The notes: generated from the sequence alone by a model not told the origin. A stretch of 64,000 nucleotides of DNA from Candidatus Saccharimonadota bacterium (GCA_026395435.1 JAPLYT010000011.1:74363-138362), one strand, 5' to 3'; counted from the first letter of the stretch, positions 2,386 through 60,137 are shown. Program-made: numbers and translations.

Positions 2386-3732
2386 CTACGTTGAGAGGAA
2401 GTCGTTGAGGGCAATCCGGATGGTAGATACTCCGACGAGCCCTGCCGGAGATTTCCCGGTTCGTACAATCGGGCCGAGCGCGCCGTCAAATCCGAGTTTC
2501 TTGGCTTCGGCTACGCGTTTTTCGATATGTGGTACATGGCGTACTTCCCCGCTGAGGCCAAGCTCTCCAAAAACTACCGCGTTCTTCTTGAGCTGCATGC
2601 CTTTGCTGGCACTAGCGATTGCCATTGCCACGGCGAGATCAGCTGCAGGCTCAGTGAGTTTAATACCTCCCACGATATTAATATAGATGTCTTGGTCGGC
2701 TAGATTGAGCTTAGTCCGGCGTTCAAGCATGGCGACGAGTAGGTTGACGCGGTTTAAGTCTATGCCGCTAGCAGCCCGTTTAGGGTAGCCATAGCTCGTT
2801 TTATTTACCAGTGCTTGCACTTCAACAAGTAGAGGCCTGGTGCCTTCCATGGTGGCCAACACGATAGATCCATCGCTCACCTGTCGTTCTGCCAGCAATG
2901 ACGCTGAAGGATTCTTAACGGGAACCAGACCTTCGTCGATCATTTCAAAAATACCCGCTTCGTTGGTTGAACCATATCTGTTTTTGATGCTTCTTAGCAG
3001 TTTGAACCCACCGTAGCGATCACCTTCTAATTGCAATACAACATCCACAACATGCTCGAGGACCTTAGGTCCAGCAATAGAGCCTTCTTTTGTGACATGC
3101 CCCACAAGTACCAGAGCAGTATTGGTTTGTTTGGCGACAACACTGAGCATGTGGGTGCTATTAGTGATTTGACTAACACTTCCCGGAGCAGAGCTCACCT
3201 CACCGACCGTTATGGTCTGGATAGAATCCACGACAACAAATTTATAGTCGCCACCCGCAATTGTCGCGGCGATATCATCAGCGCTCGTACTGCTTACAAT
3301 GGATAATTGAGACCCTTTGGCACCGAGGCGGTCGGCACGCATCGAGACTTGATGCACTGACTCTTCACCACTGACATAAAGTACCGGAATTGTAGCTGCA
3401 ATACTGCTGGCGATTTGCAGCAATAAGGTGCTTTTGCCGATACCGGGCTGTCCAGCTATGAGGTTGACGCTTCCAGCCACAAAACCGCCTCCCAGTACGG
3501 TGTCTACTTCGGTGATTCCGGTAGCTACCCGTGGTTCACGTTTGAGTTTGGCAATTGCGCTGACTGATTGGGGTGTAAGCTTGGTGCCTGATTTTGTGGC
3601 GCTCGCTACAGAGTCAATCATCATTTGTTCTTGGAGTGTGTTCCACTCGCCGCACGACGTGCACCGTCCCGTCCATGTCATAGATATGGCGCCGCAATTA
3701 CTGCATTCGTATCGTATATTTTTCTTTGCCAT
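2386..3732 (-). CDS. radA: DNA repair protein RadA/Sms
   Basis: C4 zinc finger (CSNCGAISMTWTGRCTSCGEW), Walker A (GQPGIGKST), KNRYG motif (SIKNRYGSTNE) and a Lon-like C-terminal domain. I prefer the start at MAKKNIRYEC (3732) over the upstream ATG at 3750. Confidence 0.93.
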   Translation of the reverse strand: MAKKNIRYECSNCGAISMTWTGRCTSCGEWNTLQEQMMIDSVASATKSGTKLTPQSVSAIAKLKREPRVATGITEVDTVLGGGFVAGSVNLIAGQPGIGKSTLLLQIASSIAATIPVLYVSGEESVHQVSMRADRLGAKGSQLSIVSSTSADDIAATIAGGDYKFVVVDSIQTITVGEVSSAPGSVSQITNSTHMLSVVAKQTNTALVLVGHVTKEGSIAGPKVLEHVVDVVLQLEGDRYGGFKLLRSIKNRYGSTNEAGIFEMIDEGLVPVKNPSASLLAERQVSDGSIVLATMEGTRPLLVEVQALVNKTSYGYPKRAASGIDLNRVNLLVAMLERRTKLNLADQDIYINIVGGIKLTEPAADLAVAMAIASASKGMQLKKNAVVFGELGLSGEVRHVPHIEKRVAEAKKLGFDGALGPIVRTGKSPAGLVGVSTIRIALNDFLST

Positions 3733-3800
3733 AACCGAGCTTTCCCTCATCTCAAATTCAAAGACAGTGTATCATCTTTGGGTTACGAGGTTCTAGGAAT

Positions 3801-4781
3801 CTAGAATTTACTCTCGACAACGGTATCGATCCTACTATCAAGCGCTTTATTTAGTTCTTGAGCCTCTAGTGCCACCTGATTACGAGCATCGAGAGTGGTT
3901 TTATAATCAACTACATATTGCTTGGACTGAGATAATAGCGTTTTAAACGCGTTCACGCGGGCGTTATAGGCTGGTACGGCGGCGTTGTACTCTTCAATTC
4001 GATCTGCTTTTAGTAGTACATCAAGTCGACTATTTTCTGCAGCGATACTTGTCTGATCGGTATCGAGGATGGCATTATTTGTTTTTACTAACCCCTCGAG
4101 ACGGACTAAATCAGCGTCATATCGGGTTAATGTATCGCGTCGTTCCTGGAATACTGCTTGATATTTTGCCGACAAGGCCGTCACTTGTGACCGATTAATA
4201 AAATACTTTTTATAATGTGCTTCGAGAACTGGAGAAAGTTTCGCTACTTCCGTCCCTAGAATAGAATGAAGCTCATTATGAATATCTGCGCCACTATTTT
4301 TGTAGACGCCAATTTTTTCAGTTAATTGCGGATCGTTGAGCGAGTTGTAGACGGTATCAAGCTCGGCATTGATAGTCTTCTTCTCATTACTACTCAATCG
4401 TTCATAGGCTACATGAAGCATCTCGTGCGCTGAGGTGACTTGCATAATTCCCTCGAGACGCGCGTCTGTCACATTGAGCACGAATATTCCATTATTGGGC
4501 TTGTAGCATCCCAAAACAATAGTCGTTTCACCCTCTTCGCAACTTTTATAGAAGGCTGCTTTTTCTTGTAGCACTGGTTTATTCACGAAAAAGAGCTTTC
4601 GACCTTCTGCGTTCATGGTTGTTTCAGTTGCGATATTTTGAAGTGCAGCCGGAGGTGTGTAGCCACGGAGCGTATACCAATCAAAGATATCCTGCTGCTT
4701 GAATATACCGAATGCTATAACCACGATGAGACTCATCCAGAAAAGGAGTCGTGGAATATTCGAGCGTTTTTTAGGTTCCAT
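3801..4781 (-). CDS. Membrane-anchored HExxH-motif protein with C-terminal coiled coil (paralog A of an uncharacterised family)
   Basis: N-terminal TM helix (LLFWMSLIVVIAFGIF), SAHEMLHVAY motif, a second conserved NELHSILGTEVA block and a heptad-like C-terminus. It is clearly homologous to ORF 60554..61594. The likely start is MEPKKRS (4781); the ORF track begins at 4838. Confidence 0.6.
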   Translation of the reverse strand: MEPKKRSNIPRLLFWMSLIVVIAFGIFKQQDIFDWYTLRGYTPPAALQNIATETTMNAEGRKLFFVNKPVLQEKAAFYKSCEEGETTIVLGCYKPNNGIFVLNVTDARLEGIMQVTSAHEMLHVAYERLSSNEKKTINAELDTVYNSLNDPQLTEKIGVYKNSGADIHNELHSILGTEVAKLSPVLEAHYKKYFINRSQVTALSAKYQAVFQERRDTLTRYDADLVRLEGLVKTNNAILDTDQTSIAAENSRLDVLLKADRIEEYNAAVPAYNARVNAFKTLLSQSKQYVVDYKTTLDARNQVALEAQELNKALDSRIDTVVESKF

Positions 4782-4905
4782 TACGTTTAAGTATAGTGCA
4801 GAATACCTGCATCGTCGAATCAATACAGATCCTCGCAATTCTAGAGGTTTCTCCTCTAACAGATGGGTGCAATGTGATTTTGTCTCAACGGTGGAATTTC
4901 AACGC

Positions 4906-7377
4906 TTATTCGTGCTTGGTAGTAAAGGTTAGTTGGTCATTCTTAATGCCTACCGATATGATGTCGCCCTTGAGATGCGTGTCGTCCAGCAACCCCGTGG
5001 CAACAGAATCTTCGATGGTGTCTTGTAATAACCGTCGCATTGGACGAGCTCCGTTCAGTGCATCGTAGCCGTTCGCCAGCAAATGTTTCTTTGCGCCAGG
5101 GCTCACAACGAGGCCAAGTCCATGTTTTTGTAATCTAGCCCTTAGCTCATCGAGTTGCAGATCAAGAATTGTCAGTGCGTTCTTTTGGGTTAAGGCGTGA
5201 AAGACAATTACCTTATCAATACGGTTGAGAAGCTCAGGCCGCATCATCTTCTTAAGCTCGGCGTGAACTTTGTCTATGTTCTTCTCATGCAATGCTTCAA
5301 GGTCTTTCTGATCATCGGCAGAAGATGCTTGGAAACCGAGACTTGCCTCTTTCTGGAGCTTGTCGGCACCGAGGTTACTGGTCATGATGACGATGGTATT
5401 GGTAAAATCAATTTTTCGTCCTTTGGCATCGGTAAGCACCCCATCTTCGAGGATTTGTAGCAGCATATTGAACACTTCTGGGTGCGCTTTTTCAATTTCA
5501 TCAAACAGTACTAAACTGTAGGGCTGGCGTCGAATTTTATCAGTAAGCTGACCGCCTTCATCATAACCAACATATCCGGCAGGTGCACCGACGAGGCGAG
5601 CTGCGGTGTGTCGTTCCCCAAATTCACTCATGTCTATTTTTACAAGAGCTTCGCGTGAACCAAAGAATTCATCGGCTAATACACGAGCCAGTTCTGTCTT
5701 TCCGACTCCTGTTGGGCCGAGGAAAATGAATGATCCAATGGGCCTACCGGCACTAGAAATACCTGAACGACTTCTTCGTATCGATTTTGCTACTGCTTCA
5801 ACTGCTTCATCTTGTCCGATGATATGTTTGCCAAGTGTCTTTTCGAGGTTCAGAAGATACTTGGCTTCGGCTCGGATAACGCGCTGTACAGGAACCCCTG
5901 TCATTCGGGCGACAACATCTGCTACATCATCACTTTTCATAACGAGCTTATTGGTAGTCTTGCCGGAAGCTGCAAGCTTTTTGAGTTCGGCTTCTATCTG
6001 GCTGGCCCGTGTTTTAGACCGAGCGGCCCGTTCGTAATCTTCGGATTCGACAGCTTCGTCAATCCTGACATTTACGAGTTTAAGCTCTTTAGTCAATTTT
6101 CTAATCTCAGGCGGTGTCTTGCCTTTGTCGACACGCAAGTGAGCTGATGTTTCGTCGAGTAGGTCAATTGCTTTGTCGGGCATGAACCGGTCGTTAATAT
6201 ATCGTGCTGCAAAGTTGACAGTATCGACGATTACTTCATCGCTGACCGAGACATCATGAAATGCTTCATAGTGCTTGCGAAGTCCTTTAAGGATCGCAAT
6301 AGTTTCGGGGATGGTTGTTTCTGGTACTTGTACGGGCTGGAAACGGCGTTCAAGGGCGGCATCTTTTTCGATATGTTTTGTGTACTCAGCCGTGGTGGTA
6401 GCTCCAATCATTTGGATTTTACCGCGAGCTAATGCTGGCTTGAGGATATTTCCGGCGTCCATTGCCCCTTCAGCCGCACCTGCTCCGACGATAAGGTGGA
6501 GCTCATCAATAAAGACAATTGTCTTCTTGTCATCTTCGAGCTCTGCCATAACTTTTTTGAGTCGTTCTTCGAACTCACCGCGGTATTTCGTACCGGCAAT
6601 CATACCCGCAAGATCAAGCATAATAATTCGCTTGTCGATAAGACTATCGGGCACGTCTTCGGCCACGATACGCTGAGCTAACCCCTCGGCAATCGCGGTT
6701 TTACCGACACCGGGCTCACCGATCAGGACGGGATTATTTTTAGTTCGTCGATTAAGAATAGTGATGACTCGACGGATCTGAGCCTCCCGGCCAACAACAG
6801 GGTCAAGTTTATTATCTTTAGCGAGAGCGGTCATATCCGTACCAAAGAAATCGAGCGCAGTTTTGCGTGATTTTTTACCACGTTTTCGAGTGCCTGTACC
6901 ACCAGAATCTTCCATCTGTTGTCGATTGAGGAATTGCTCGAGTTCGCCAGTGAGACTTTCGACATTTATATTCATATCTCGGAGCAATATGGTCGCGCGA
7001 GCGTTTTTCTGACTGAGAATACTAAACAAAATATGCTCGGTACCACAGTATTCCTGGGTGAAATCCTGGGCAACATCATAGGCCATGCGGAGTGTGAGTT
7101 TGGCGGTTTCGCTGAGCCCCTTGGCCTCCATGTTGAGGGCAATCGCTTTGGGTGTGAGGTTCAGCGCCAGTCTCGCTCTATCAAGCGTAACTCCTGCCCC
7201 TTCAAGTATCTTTGCTCCCATGCTCACATCTTGGGCAAGGACACCAAGCAGTAGATGCTCTGTGCCGATATAGGCACTACCAAAACTACGAGCGATTGCA
7301 TCGGCGTGTTTGAGGCTTTGCAACGCATTGTCTGTGAGGTGATTTAAAAATTCGTGGAATTCTGGTGTGTCTTGCAT
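4906..7377 (-). CDS. clpC: ATP-dependent Clp protease ATP-binding subunit ClpC
   Basis: Two Clp_N repeats, two AAA+ modules ([13 protein letters not shown] and [12 protein letters not shown]), a short UVR-like linker ([20 protein letters not shown]) rather than a long ClpB M-domain, and an LGF loop (KEASLGFQ) resembling the ClpP-docking tripeptide. Confidence 0.9.
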
Positions 7378-7440
7378 ATGAGTGTGCCCCCTGGTGTTAG
7401 CTATATTGATAATAGAATATGCTCTTTAAATAGTATCAAA

Positions 7441-7467
7441 CTAGCACTCGCCATGCAAGAGTGCTAA
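7441..7467. promoter_or_regulatory. CIRCE-type inverted repeat (HrcA operator) upstream of clpC
   Basis: CTAGCACTC-N9-GAGTGCTAA matches the CIRCE consensus TTAGCACTC-N9-GAGTGCTAA at 17 of 18 positions. It lies 64 nt upstream of the clpC start. Confidence 0.75.
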
Positions 7468-7537
7468 TCCTCAACATCAGACCAGCTGGCATGTTAGGGG
7501 CAAAGCCCCGAACTTTGCCATCTTTTTGAGCCCTGGC

Positions 7538-7668
7538 GCAATTTTATTCTGCGATGCTCGCGTCGCCGTACCATGTGTACGGCTTGCTCCGCTCCTCACA
7601 TATACATTGCACTGCGCATTCATGTGTGAGGCTGTGGATCGAATCGGGATGCAATTTTATTCTACGAT
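7538..7668. repeat. 18-nt direct repeats GCAATTTTATTCT[G/A]CGAT (7538..7555 and 7651..7668) bracketing a 95-nt structured segment
   Basis: The repeats match at 17 of 18 positions. The enclosed segment holds the 7-bp hairpin motif (7565..7583) and a CCTCACA...TGTGAGG inverted repeat (7593..7630). Confidence 0.6.
7553..7596. repeat. Intergenic hairpin motif, copy A (nusA-clpC spacer)
   Basis: Sequence is gatgctcgcgtc-[GCCGTAC catgt GTACGGC]-ttgctccgctcct. It shares its flanks and hairpin geometry with copy B at 9000..9042. Confidence 0.6.
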
Positions 7669-7672
7669 AAAA

Positions 7673-7698
7673 AATAATCCGGATAAATCCGGATTATT
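7673..7698 (-). terminator. Intrinsic terminator downstream of nusA
   Basis: On the minus strand, the AATAATCCGGA / TCCGGATTATT stem is followed by TTTTTAT. It lies 30 nt after the nusA stop. Confidence 0.8.
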
Positions 7699-7727
7699 GA
7701 TGAGGCCCTAGCGCACTGCGATTGTAT

Positions 7728-8906
7728 TTACTCGCCGTGTTCTTCGATGGCGTCGAGGAGGCTGCTTTCGAGCTGGTCCTTGCGCTTGAGTCGAGGCATT
7801 GGCTTCGGTTCAGAAGGCTTAACTGGTGCAGCAGGTTTCGGTGCTTCAGCAACCACAACGGGCTTTGGTGCATCAGACGTGATATCAAGGTCATACCCTG
7901 TAAGTTTACTAGCAAGCCGGACGTTTTGACCGCTTTTACCGATAGCAATACTGAGCTGATCTTCTGGAACTGTTACGGTTGCCTTCTTAACATCTTCAAA
8001 GAGTTCTACTTTGGTGATTTTGGTCGGGCTGAGTGCGTTGGTGATGAATTCTTTTGGTTCTGCGCTCCAGACGACGATATCGATTTTTTCTTGTTCACCG
8101 ATTTCGCTCATGACGGCGTTGACGCGTGTTCCATGACCGCCAACAAATGTACCAACGGGGTCGACGCCAGGCATGCTGCTTGCAACAGCAATTTTGCTGC
8201 GGACACCAGCTTCTCGGGCAATGTTTTTGATTTCTACAGATCCGTTTTCCATTTCAGGAACTTCATTGCGGAATAAGTGTTCTACGAAAGCTGCGTTCCC
8301 GCGGCTGACGACGAGTTGTGGCCCGCGGAATCCGCGTTCTACGTCCTTAAGGAACACTTTGAGGCGTTGTCCTGGGTAGTAGCGTTCGCCCATGATCTGT
8401 TCGCTTTTCGGCATAATACCTTGAGCTTTGCCCAAGTCAACTCGGACAATCATACCTTCGACGCGTGATACGAGACCGTTAATAACGGTGCCGATTTTGT
8501 CGTCATATTCAGCCATAACGATTTCTCGTTCTGCTTCTCGAAGTCGTTGCAAGATAACTTGTTTTGCAGTTTGAGCAGCGACACGACCAAAGTCTTCGAC
8601 TTTCTCGTGAATTTCTTCGGTTGCACCAATGGCAGCGTTTTTACGCATAGCCTGTGCTTGAGTAAGGCTGATCTCGAAACGATCGTCTCCAACAAGTTCG
8701 ACGATTTCTTTGCTAATGTATGCATCAACGTCGCCCGTCGCGAGGTTCATCGTTACACGAACTTCTTGTTCGCGATCACCATAATCACGTCGATACGCAG
8801 CAGCGAGTGCTTGTTCGACGATTTCTTGAACGGTTTCAAGTGGTAAGTTTTTTTCTTCGGCTATAGTTTTGACAGCTATAGCCAGACCTTTCATATCTAA
8901 TTCCAT
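7728..8906 (-). CDS. nusA: Transcription termination/antitermination factor NusA
   Basis: N-terminal domain, S1 and two KH regions with typical strings (GPQLVVSRGN, EVPEMENGSVEIKNIAREAGVRSKIAV, KLTGYDLDI). The C-terminal tail is Pro/Lys-rich. Confidence 0.93.
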   Translation of the reverse strand: MELDMKGLAIAVKTIAEEKNLPLETVQEIVEQALAAAYRRDYGDREQEVRVTMNLATGDVDAYISKEIVELVGDDRFEISLTQAQAMRKNAAIGATEEIHEKVEDFGRVAAQTAKQVILQRLREAEREIVMAEYDDKIGTVINGLVSRVEGMIVRVDLGKAQGIMPKSEQIMGERYYPGQRLKVFLKDVERGFRGPQLVVSRGNAAFVEHLFRNEVPEMENGSVEIKNIAREAGVRSKIAVASSMPGVDPVGTFVGGHGTRVNAVMSEIGEQEKIDIVVWSAEPKEFITNALSPTKITKVELFEDVKKATVTVPEDQLSIAIGKSGQNVRLASKLTGYDLDITSDAPKPVVVAEAPKPAAPVKPSEPKPMPRLKRKDQLESSLLDAIEEHGE

Positions 8907-8999
8907 ACTATATTCGACTTTTCTGCCGCATGAACCTGCCTACCGACTACGTCGCTAGCACCGTTCATGTTGGCTGTTCGCTGCTGCGTCAGAAGCTTC

Positions 9000-9042
9000 G
9001 GTGCTCACGCATCGTACCGATAGTACGATTTGTTCCGCTCCT
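9000..9042. repeat. Intergenic hairpin motif, copy B (nusA leader)
   Basis: Sequence is ggtgctcacgc-[ATCGTAC cgata GTACGAT]-ttgttccgctcct. The stem differs from copy A at its two outer pairs, and both changes are compensatory (G-C/C-G versus A-T/T-A). Confidence 0.6.
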
Positions 9043-9134
9043 TGCCTCTTCCTTGCATCGATCGAGCCCAGAAAAGTCTCTCCTTTCTTGAGATTAGTCT
9101 TTATATTTTTGTAATAATTATTTAATGTACGGAT

Positions 9135-9160
9135 GAAAAAATCCGACCTGTTGGCCGGAT
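9135..9160 (-). terminator. Intrinsic terminator-like hairpin inside the long nusA upstream region
   Basis: In minus sense, AUCCGGCC-AACA-GGUCGGAU (8 bp including one G-U) is followed by UUUUUC. No minus-strand gene lies upstream of it, because pepN diverges at 9295. Confidence 0.5.
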
Positions 9161-9294
9161 CTATGTACTACAAGTATAGCCTAGTTTGATGGAAATTGGA
9201 AGGGCTAACCTACATTTTCTTGATTAGATGGTGGGCATGCGTAATGTAATTTTGAATTTTTAAGTGCCCCTATTCAGATGGTACACTTGAGTGA

Positions 9295-55746: not shown

Positions 55747-55941
55747 GATTATAGTAATTGTAGATGTTTAGCCTCATAAATACAAGGAGCCCCGGACGGA
55801 CCGGAGCTCATTGGAAGCCTCACACTTCCTACATACAGCTTATGCCTTCACGCACTAGAATGCAATAGAAATTCTGCCGAACATAGCAAGAAATGATATC
55901 ATATATTTAGTTATTCATAAGCACAAACTTAAGGAAAGTGT

Positions 55942-58610: not shown

Positions 58611-58760
58611 AAAAATATCCTTTCGTGCCGCATAGCTCCGGAAAGGATGAAGAGTATTCATATCTTTCCGCCTTATGTGGCGGCTAGATGGAGCACCTTG
58701 TCCTTAGTGGGTAGGTTGCCGGCAGGTCGACGAGCTAGTTCTCTCGCTGCACTCTTTATA
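58611..58760 (-). promoter_or_regulatory. SAM riboswitch of the SAM-I clan (SAM-IV or SAM-I/IV-like) with SD-sequestering expression platform
   Basis: The minus-sense RNA reads AAGAGUGCAGCGAG...CUCGUCGACCUGCCGGCAACCUACC...GGUGCUCC. This includes the GCCGGCAACC and GGUGC core strings of SAM-I-clan aptamers. Downstream, AUCCUUUC can pair either with the SD GAAAGGAU or with the upstream GGAAAGAU. Confidence 0.6.
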
Positions 58761-58774
58761 TTTACGTTGTTAAC

Positions 58775-60063: not shown

Positions 60064-60137
60064 TGGGGATTGGCCAAGTGGTAAGGCAGAGGATTCTGGT
60101 TCCTCGATCGGGGGTTCGAATCCCTCATCCCCAGCCA
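60064..60137 (+). tRNA. tRNA-Gln (anticodon CUG), CCA encoded
   Basis: The manual fold gives acceptor TGGGGAT/ATCCCCA, a D arm GCCAAGTGGTAAGGC, anticodon stem GAGGA/TCCTC with loop TTCTGGT, a T arm GGGGG-TTCGAAT-CCCTC, discriminator G and CCA. It resembles E. coli tRNA-Gln closely. Confidence 0.9.

Follow-up and report, generated by a model that had tools for sequence, protein, structure and literature searches.

The window, by which we mean the whole 64,000-nt stretch of DNA analysed here, belongs to a Candidatus Saccharibacteria (TM7) genome. It carries radA, a hypothetical gene, clpC and nusA on its minus strand and the divergent pepN beyond them (Table 1). The nearest relatives of its NusA protein are named Saccharibacteria, and an exact match to this protein is not on record. 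The spacer between nusA and clpC holds the intrinsic terminator of nusA and the clpC promoter, which overlaps a CIRCE operator, the heat-shock operator of HrcA. The same CIRCE and promoter geometry is found upstream of clpC in L001, L002, L005, L041, L173, and L174 (L numbers denote the loci and contigs compared throughout), which suggests that clpC is regulated by HrcA in these Saccharibacteria. On the other side of nusA, a minus-strand hairpin at 9136-9160 (ATCCGGCC-N4-GGTCGGAT), followed by T6, lies a few bases past the nusA promoter and is preceded by a -10 box (TATACT) at 9173-9178. More than 50 of 85 Saccharibacteria loci carry the near-invariant pattern CCGGCC-N(3-9)-GGTCGGATTTTTT, with its conserved G.U pair, upstream of nusA. 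This hairpin resembles a leader terminator or attenuator, and autoregulation by NusA through it would be plausible. Elsewhere, the window contains a SAM riboswitch (RF00162, 50.8 bits, 58657-58764, minus strand) and a tRNA-Gln(CTG) gene (60064-60137, plus strand).

Table 1. Features of the nusA-clpC region of the window, in order of position; bit scores are from the covariance models R1 and R2
Feature	Position	Strand	Remarks
radA	2386-3750	-	
Hypothetical gene		-	listed between radA and clpC
clpC	4906-7377	-	
clpC promoter, TTGCAT-N17-TACTAT	7430-7458	-	overlaps CIRCE
CIRCE operator	7441-7467	-	TTAGCACTC-N9-GAGTGCTAG
Copy A, decayed element	7504-7633	-	between the nusA terminator and the clpC promoter; R2 57.6 bits
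Direct repeat 2, GCAATTTTATTCTGCGAT	7538-7555	+	inside the 3' half of the copy A stem; within the R2 alignment
Motif A	7553-7596	-	apex of copy A
Local hairpin, CCTCACA...TGTGAGG	7594-7631	-	rearranged 5' half of copy A; sequence differs in L112
Direct repeat 1, GCAATTTTATTCTACGAT	7651-7668	+	outside copy A; abuts the nusA terminator
nusA intrinsic terminator	7673-7698, plus T-run		in the nusA-clpC spacer
nusA	7728-8906	-	
9-nt spacer GAATATAGT and nusA ATG	8904-8915 (ATG 8904-8906)	-	directly 3' of copy B; without Shine-Dalgarno
Copy B, intact 163-nt Y-shaped palindromic element	8916-9078	-	R1 185.7 bits; R2 107.3 bits
Closing stem/terminal inverted repeat, 3' strand, CAGAAAAGTC	8916-8925	-	
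Arm 2, CATGAAC...GTTCATG with inner CGAC/GTCG hairpin	8928-8970	-	163-nt subtype only
Motif B	9000-9042	-	apex of arm 1; alignment columns 37-79
Closing stem/terminal inverted repeat, 5' strand, GACTTTTCTG	9069-9078	-	perfect reverse complement of 8916-8925
Displaced nusA Shine-Dalgarno, AAAGGAGA	9079-9086	-	directly 5' of copy B; unpaired in the MFE fold
pepN	starts 9295		divergent from nusA

An initial annotation of this DNA had drawn attention to a motif of about 43 nt in both spacers flanking nusA. Both copies, motif A and motif B, are present and in identical orientation. Their stems are GCCGTAC/GTACGGC and ATCGTAC/GTACGAT, as had been described; the loops are unrelated, and every difference between the two stems preserves pairing. 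The flanks are conserved as well, with a 1-nt indel in copy A, and because of this indel a strict motif pattern matched copy B alone (chance expectation 0). Differences in the flanks are likewise neutral for pairing (A-U to G-C and G-C to G.U), in an interrupted helix of GG/CC, GC/GC, and AC/GU. In a repeat search of the window, the similarity extended in register to 45 nt at 71% identity, and a profile of B-type elements matched copy A with E = 3e-7. A covariance model built from four full elements, namely copy B of the window and the copies of L006, L007, and L051 (R1), recovered copy A as a diverged full-length relative with 38.3 bits over 7473-7633, and a second model (R2) scored it at 57.6 bits with an E-value of about 1e-13. 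The relationship between A and B is thus far beyond chance.

Several other identities for the motif were tried and rejected. The two flank differences fall at third codon positions of a 27-aa open reading frame (ORF) that overlaps copy A; the idea of a small ORF was dropped because the corresponding frame of copy B gives an ORF of just 7 codons and because of the covariation and the inverted copies described below. The conserved nucleotides or geometry required of group II intron domain V, the hammerhead core, SRP RNA, 5S rRNA, the T-box, the k-turn/loop E, and the sarcin-ricin loop are absent. Comparison of Rfam 15 with the complete window, with each of the two spacers, and with two typical elements gave the motif only sub-threshold matches at chance level.

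Motif B forms part of a larger structure. Copy B consists of a 10-bp closing stem, a long arm 1 that carries motif B at its apex, and a short arm 2, and its predicted fold reaches a minimum free energy (MFE) of -72.4 kcal/mol (z = -5.5 relative to shuffles). Within the apex, the interrupted helix (GG/CC, GC/GC, AC/GU) encloses purine-rich internal loops and a CGUAC-N5-GUACG hairpin. We found the 163-nt element at the same place in L006 (96% NusA identity) and in L002/L007 (89%) and in reversed orientation in L051 (74%), and R1 finds a diverged copy in the nusA leader of L005. The copies of the window, L006, L007, and L051 align without gaps, and 27 of their 58 predicted pairs show compensatory change. 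Between the window and L007 copies, 37 of 163 positions differ, and six of the seven pairs that changed on both sides still pair. The stem of arm 2 covaries among the orthologues (CATGAAC/GTTCATG in the window, CAAGAAC/GTTCTTG in L006, and CATTTAC/GTAAATG in L007), and helix 1, the closing stem, covaries across the element family.

Copy A retains an intact apex, with about 14 non-canonical pairs in the R2 alignment that largely affect the lower stem. Its orthologue in L112, from a strain that is 98% identical, scores 76 bits and pairs better. With the nusA terminator on one side of it and the clpC promoter on the other, copy A is probably not part of the clpC mRNA, and it would represent a decaying copy upstream of the CIRCE-overlapping promoter. 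The initial annotation had described two 18-nt direct repeats as enclosing the motif here, in keeping with a small insertion or duplication. The repeats exist (17 of 18 positions identical, 113 nt apart), but they do not bracket the element: the copy at 7538-7555 lies within it and is conserved in the L112 orthologue, while the copy at 7651-7668 lies outside, and the repeats are therefore not the target-site duplication of the element but a probable partial duplication, in which direct repeat 1 would repeat part of the 3' half of the element. The idea of an insertion holds insofar as the motif is part of a mobile insertion element, as described below, but the 18-nt repeats are neither its boundaries nor its target-site duplication. 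The CCTCACA/TGTGAGG inverted repeat is present at 7594-7600 and 7625-7631, as reported. On the other hand, the proposed weaker relative at 55820-55890 was not found by R1 or R2 even at permissive thresholds, and all that it has in common with the direct repeat is a gapped string of 12 nt (one extra match versus 0.07 expected). At 55862-55877, GCAATAGAAATTCTGC resembles the 18-nt repeat (GCAAT-N3/4-ATTCTGC) and lies outside any element by both models.

Beyond the window, the covariance models identify about 40 further copies in Saccharibacteria and in Uhrbacteria-like metagenome contigs. A metagenome scan with the apex pattern returned 43 stretches, about nine of which are chance matches in GC-rich coding DNA and about 34 of which are true elements according to R1 and R2, with scores of up to 105 bits (R1) and 119 bits (R2) and E-values down to 1e-32. 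The elements are 115-165 nt long. The form seen most often is a long single hairpin of about 117 nt (GACTTACGCGTTTGAG...CGAGGAGCGGAGTAAG-CGTAC-loop-GTACG-TGTCGAGCACCGCAG...CAAACGCGTAAGTC), which lacks arm 2, and the form of about 163 nt has the extra side arm; GACTTAC...GTAAGTC ends are shared by many copies. In an alignment of 34 copies, standard pairs occupy 92.4% of pair cells; shuffles reach 64.1% and slid controls 29-40%. Of the 58 pairs, 55 show changes in both partners. This alignment is fitted to the model, and the scan pattern itself accounts for part of the apex conservation in it. Taken with the 27 compensatory pairs among the four full elements, these counts bear out the selection on structure that had been proposed from the two stems in the window: the whole stem system is kept by compensatory change. 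Two elements (L113, 2147-2295; L124, 887-1036) have about 31 nt inserted 3' of the apex, with two extra small hairpins (...GCGCCGCTACGAAGTAGC...GTACCCTTGGGGTAC...), and the L113 locus is the same as the L089 locus, where this insert is absent. Viral contigs gave 0 matches to the apex pattern and 38 matches to the terminal repeat, 0 of which are elements by R2.

The metagenome elements adjoin thrS, nrdR/ftsZ, secA, pnp, hisS/yqeY, metG, a pilin gene, a PIN-TRAM gene next to radA, and tRNA clusters, and L112 alone among them adjoins clpC. They typically occupy the entire spacer, and some contigs carry several (three in L093, two each in L091 and L107). On L093 (1439-2290; the same as L120), a stretch of 850 bp holds three elements in +, -, + orientation and three tRNA genes in an interleaved order, and two of these elements end 2-7 nt before a tRNA. 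The polynucleotide phosphorylase (PNPase) of the L100 host is nearest to named Uhrbacteria/Patescibacteria proteins and the ribonucleotide reductase of the L097 host is 81-84% identical to named Saccharibacteria proteins; by these protein comparisons, the hosts span classes of Patescibacteria.

In about 1 Mb of Saccharibacteria nusA loci from 84 sources, all matches fall in the two spacers flanking nusA, and about 75 of the 84 loci have a short leader without an element. The window itself has just two copies in 64 kb, both adjoining nusA. Forms of 120 nt without arm 2 lie just upstream of the clpC promoter/CIRCE in L038 and L041 (R1) and in L065 (added by R2), all of them antisense to clpC. 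In L038 (8450-8680, minus strand), the 120-nt element is located between the clpC CIRCE and an imperfect CIRCE-like sequence (GGCACGCT...GAGTGCCA), and the adjoining bases extend the palindrome. The clustering in nusA spacers is odd for random transposition and suggests a site preference, a shortage of permissive spacers, or retention.

Filled and empty sites point to mobility of the element. The NYN-pnp spacer of L129/L100 contains a 123-bp element whose terminal inverted repeats are perfect over 17 bp (TAGGACTTACGCGTTTG...CAAACGCGTAAGTCCTA) and which is flanked on both sides by ACATT, and the empty site (...AAAAACATT|ATTATT...) is found in L131 (95% PNPase identity) and L132 (82%). We therefore conclude that the element inserted here with a 5-bp target-site duplication. 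This is the single insertion with both a clean duplication and an empty site. The 5-nt flanks of the elements in L114 and L092 match at four of five positions, and the duplicated flank in L114 takes in the ATG of secA; at most old copies, as well as at copies A and B of the window, a target-site duplication is undetectable. Upstream of the NYN gene, the Uhrbacteria-like contig L129 also carries an island (4617-8889) with an integrase, an ORF6N-domain gene, and an N6 methyltransferase, at the position occupied by rpsO in L131 and L132, which is a further sign of recent mobile-DNA activity in this strain.

At the nusA locus, sites are filled in the window, L006, and L007, and both window copies are missing from L174, L173, and L008 (89-90% NusA identity). 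The empty nusA site of L174, AGGAGA|GAATAATG, matches the window flanks, AGGAGA-(163 nt)-GAATATAGTATG, with no duplication visible. In L001 (98% NusA identity), the leader has a hairpin of similar architecture and unalignable sequence, and a 222-aa ORF replaces copy A; these differences indicate rapid turnover. Extra genes between nusA and clpC, with no Pfam match on record, are present in L001 (1583-2251) and in L173 (2665-3303, 212 aa; 90% NusA identity) at the position that copy A holds in the window, which makes the nusA-clpC spacer a hot spot for changes in gene content. At the ftsZ-nrdR spacer, comparison of L133 with L134 showed unrelated sequence of similar length in the 84% relative. 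Neither an autonomous partner, with a transposase bounded by the same ends, nor solitary element ends beside a transposase were found in the loci examined.

Together, these findings lead us to conclude, with a probability of roughly three in four, that the motif is the conserved apex of a non-autonomous palindromic element resembling a miniature inverted-repeat transposable element (MITE) and dispersed in Patescibacteria (Saccharibacteria and Uhrbacteria-like lineages). Terminal inverted repeats are perfect over 10 bp in copy B and 17 bp in L129, filled and empty sites are seen (L129 versus L131), and the copies are small, non-coding, and located at non-homologous sites in both orientations. 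The element inserts at unrelated intergenic sites in either orientation, and at least one recent event gave a 5-bp duplication. A transposase acting in trans and recognizing the ends would mobilize it, and a co-transcribed copy would fold into a very stable RNA hairpin. Four observations fit a plain MITE poorly, namely the greater conservation of the apex than of the ends in L093, an excess of G.U pairs, the lack of a visible partner transposase, and the clustering in nusA spacers. Because of these misfits, we retained two alternatives, one based on RNA function and one on single-stranded DNA.

The first is a family of functional structured RNAs, either a protein-binding or processing module or a set of small-RNA paralogues, in which the apex would be the active part and RNA function, such as that of an RNase target, a stabilizer, or a translation regulator, would drive spread and retention. 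We consider this unlikely, although several observations speak for it, including the very strong covariation throughout, the compensatory changes among the nusA-leader orthologues, and the reuse of the same two nusA-flanking spacers in Saccharibacteria. In L093, the terminal stems differ strongly among the copies of one contig while the apex is conserved, a pattern closer to that of a functional RNA family than to a recent burst of MITEs. The internal loops of the apex (5'-GGA/3'-GA and AA/G) and the flanking bases are conserved among copies, but some copies, such as the second of L091, have a plain helix in place of the loops. On the element's own strand, G.U outnumbers A.C in the stems by 76 to 26 (about 3:1), which favors RNA and is not predicted by a plain double-stranded DNA transposon model. 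However, this bias is equal in co-oriented and anti-oriented copies, so it cannot separate RNA-level from DNA-level models, and founder inheritance or alignment bias may be its source. Further evidence against an RNA function is that the elements show no orientation bias relative to host transcription (about 12 co-oriented and about 16 anti-oriented, by our reading), that they fill their spacers and leave no space for a promoter or terminator of their own, that the one clean insertion has inverted-repeat ends and a 5-bp duplication, and that the family has no Rfam match.

The second alternative, a single-strand-DNA hairpin element of the REP/RAYT type or derived from IS200/IS605 (PATE) and moved by a Y1 transposase that recognizes the folded strand, is improbable. 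Like the family described here, REP/BIME sequences and IS200/IS605-derived PATEs are hairpin-forming dispersed repeats with possible single-strand recognition, and the hairpin-centred architecture, the strand-specific G.U bias irrespective of host transcription, and the lack of a consistent target-site duplication at most copies, with none at copy B relative to L174, are all consistent with such an origin. On the other hand, those elements are much shorter (20-40 nt for REPs, compared to 115-165 nt here) or lack terminal inverted repeats and target-site duplications, whereas L129 has long perfect inverted repeats together with a direct 5-bp duplication. To our knowledge, IS200/IS605-type transposition yields neither, and no conserved flanking tetranucleotide was seen.

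The initial annotation had placed all copies upstream of minus-strand genes and thereby implied a 5'-UTR motif, that is, a cis-regulatory leader specific to nusA and clpC, such as an autoregulatory NusA-binding or heat-shock RNA structure. The placement is correct for both window copies, which share one orientation; copy B lies within the nusA 5' UTR, and several Saccharibacteria have copies in the nusA leader and upstream of clpC. A dedicated leader is nevertheless highly improbable, since the orientation is not fixed (the element is inverted in the nusA leader of L051 and upstream of clpC in L038, L041, and L065), about 75 of the 84 relatives' loci lack the element, copy A is downstream of the nusA terminator and upstream of the CIRCE-overlapping clpC promoter, and the element is found beside many unrelated genes. 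Lastly, chance similarity or a local duplication of part of the nusA leader without any wider family, to which the presence of just two copies in the 64-kb window, both beside nusA, might have pointed, is refuted by the roughly 40 copies in other organisms with E-values down to 1e-32.

The MITE-like family matched no description in Rfam or the searchable literature, where a search for work on MITEs or structured intergenic RNAs in Saccharibacteria, Patescibacteria, and the candidate phyla radiation (CPR) turned up nothing relevant. Correia elements (CREE) of Neisseria are 100-160 bp long, with a TA duplication and ends of about 26 bp. The two resemble each other in being non-coding and intergenic, with terminal inverted repeats and both orientations, and Correia elements are co-transcribed with their neighbors as stable hairpins able to alter expression. 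They differ in that the family described here has a 5-bp duplication (in one clean case) and 17-bp ends of unrelated sequence and occurs in another phylum, and the Y-shaped 163-nt subtype and the conserved apex belong to the Patescibacteria family. Intergenic palindromic repeats are also represented by ERIC/IRU in enterobacteria, BOX and RUP in pneumococcus, and RPE in Rickettsia. Like the family described here, these imperfect palindromes span about 100-150 nt, lie within transcribed intergenic regions in both orientations, and show modular length variants and a patchy distribution among close strains. The likeness is one of description, and a sequence relationship is not expected; RPEs, unlike the family here, also insert in coding regions. 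We know of no transposase partner for ERIC and BOX, as is the case for the Patescibacteria family.

The position of copy B may have consequences for nusA. A Shine-Dalgarno (SD)-like motif is present in the 20 nt before the nusA ATG in 77 of 80 related species, the exceptions being L006, L007, and L035, and L006 and L007 share the copy B insertion. In the window, the distance between the SD and the ATG is 172 nt, made up of the 163-nt copy B and 9 nt. The predicted closing stem would leave just 9 nt between the SD and the AUG, inside the functional range of 5-11 nt, and both are unpaired in the MFE fold. We propose that copy B is an old insertion placed precisely between the SD and the AUG, and that its 10-bp closing stem would fold the two back to a distance of about 9 nt, creating a "split" ribosome-binding site. 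Split ribosome-binding sites with an intervening structure over 22-27 nt are found in genes 38 and 25 of phage T4 (PMC3014915). There, too, the SD and the AUG are too far apart, and the intervening structure is predicted to restore a functional distance (PMC3014915). The T4 cases differ in that 22-27 nt form a small hairpin, whereas the predicted structure at nusA is a 163-nt three-way fold of mobile-element origin, which would be about seven times larger than the T4 precedents.

Such a role could explain why the fold has been retained by compensatory change in the orthologous copies, an explanation to which we give slightly less than an even chance; gene conversion from other copies is an alternative to selection for the fold at the nusA leader. 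It is also conceivable, if rather doubtful, that the nusA copy has been domesticated, such that nusA translation would rely on the 163-nt fold to join the split SD and AUG, and that the apex of the family would be a protein-recognition module and not inert filler. If copy B is domesticated in this way, NusA synthesis would respond to RNA folding, temperature, or RNase III.

The tiny genomes of Patescibacteria (CPR) are generally considered repeat-poor. A structured mobile element common to Saccharibacteria and Uhrbacteria-like lineages would be useful for following genome dynamics and horizontal exchange in this group, and since it fills spacers and overlaps called ORFs, it would also be a source of mis-annotation. 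The nusA case is a natural experiment in which a mobile element that separates the ribosome-binding site of an essential gene from its start codon has been retained. Copy B has apparently persisted because its own predicted fold would rescue nusA translation, and the case illustrates how selfish DNA may turn structurally indispensable.
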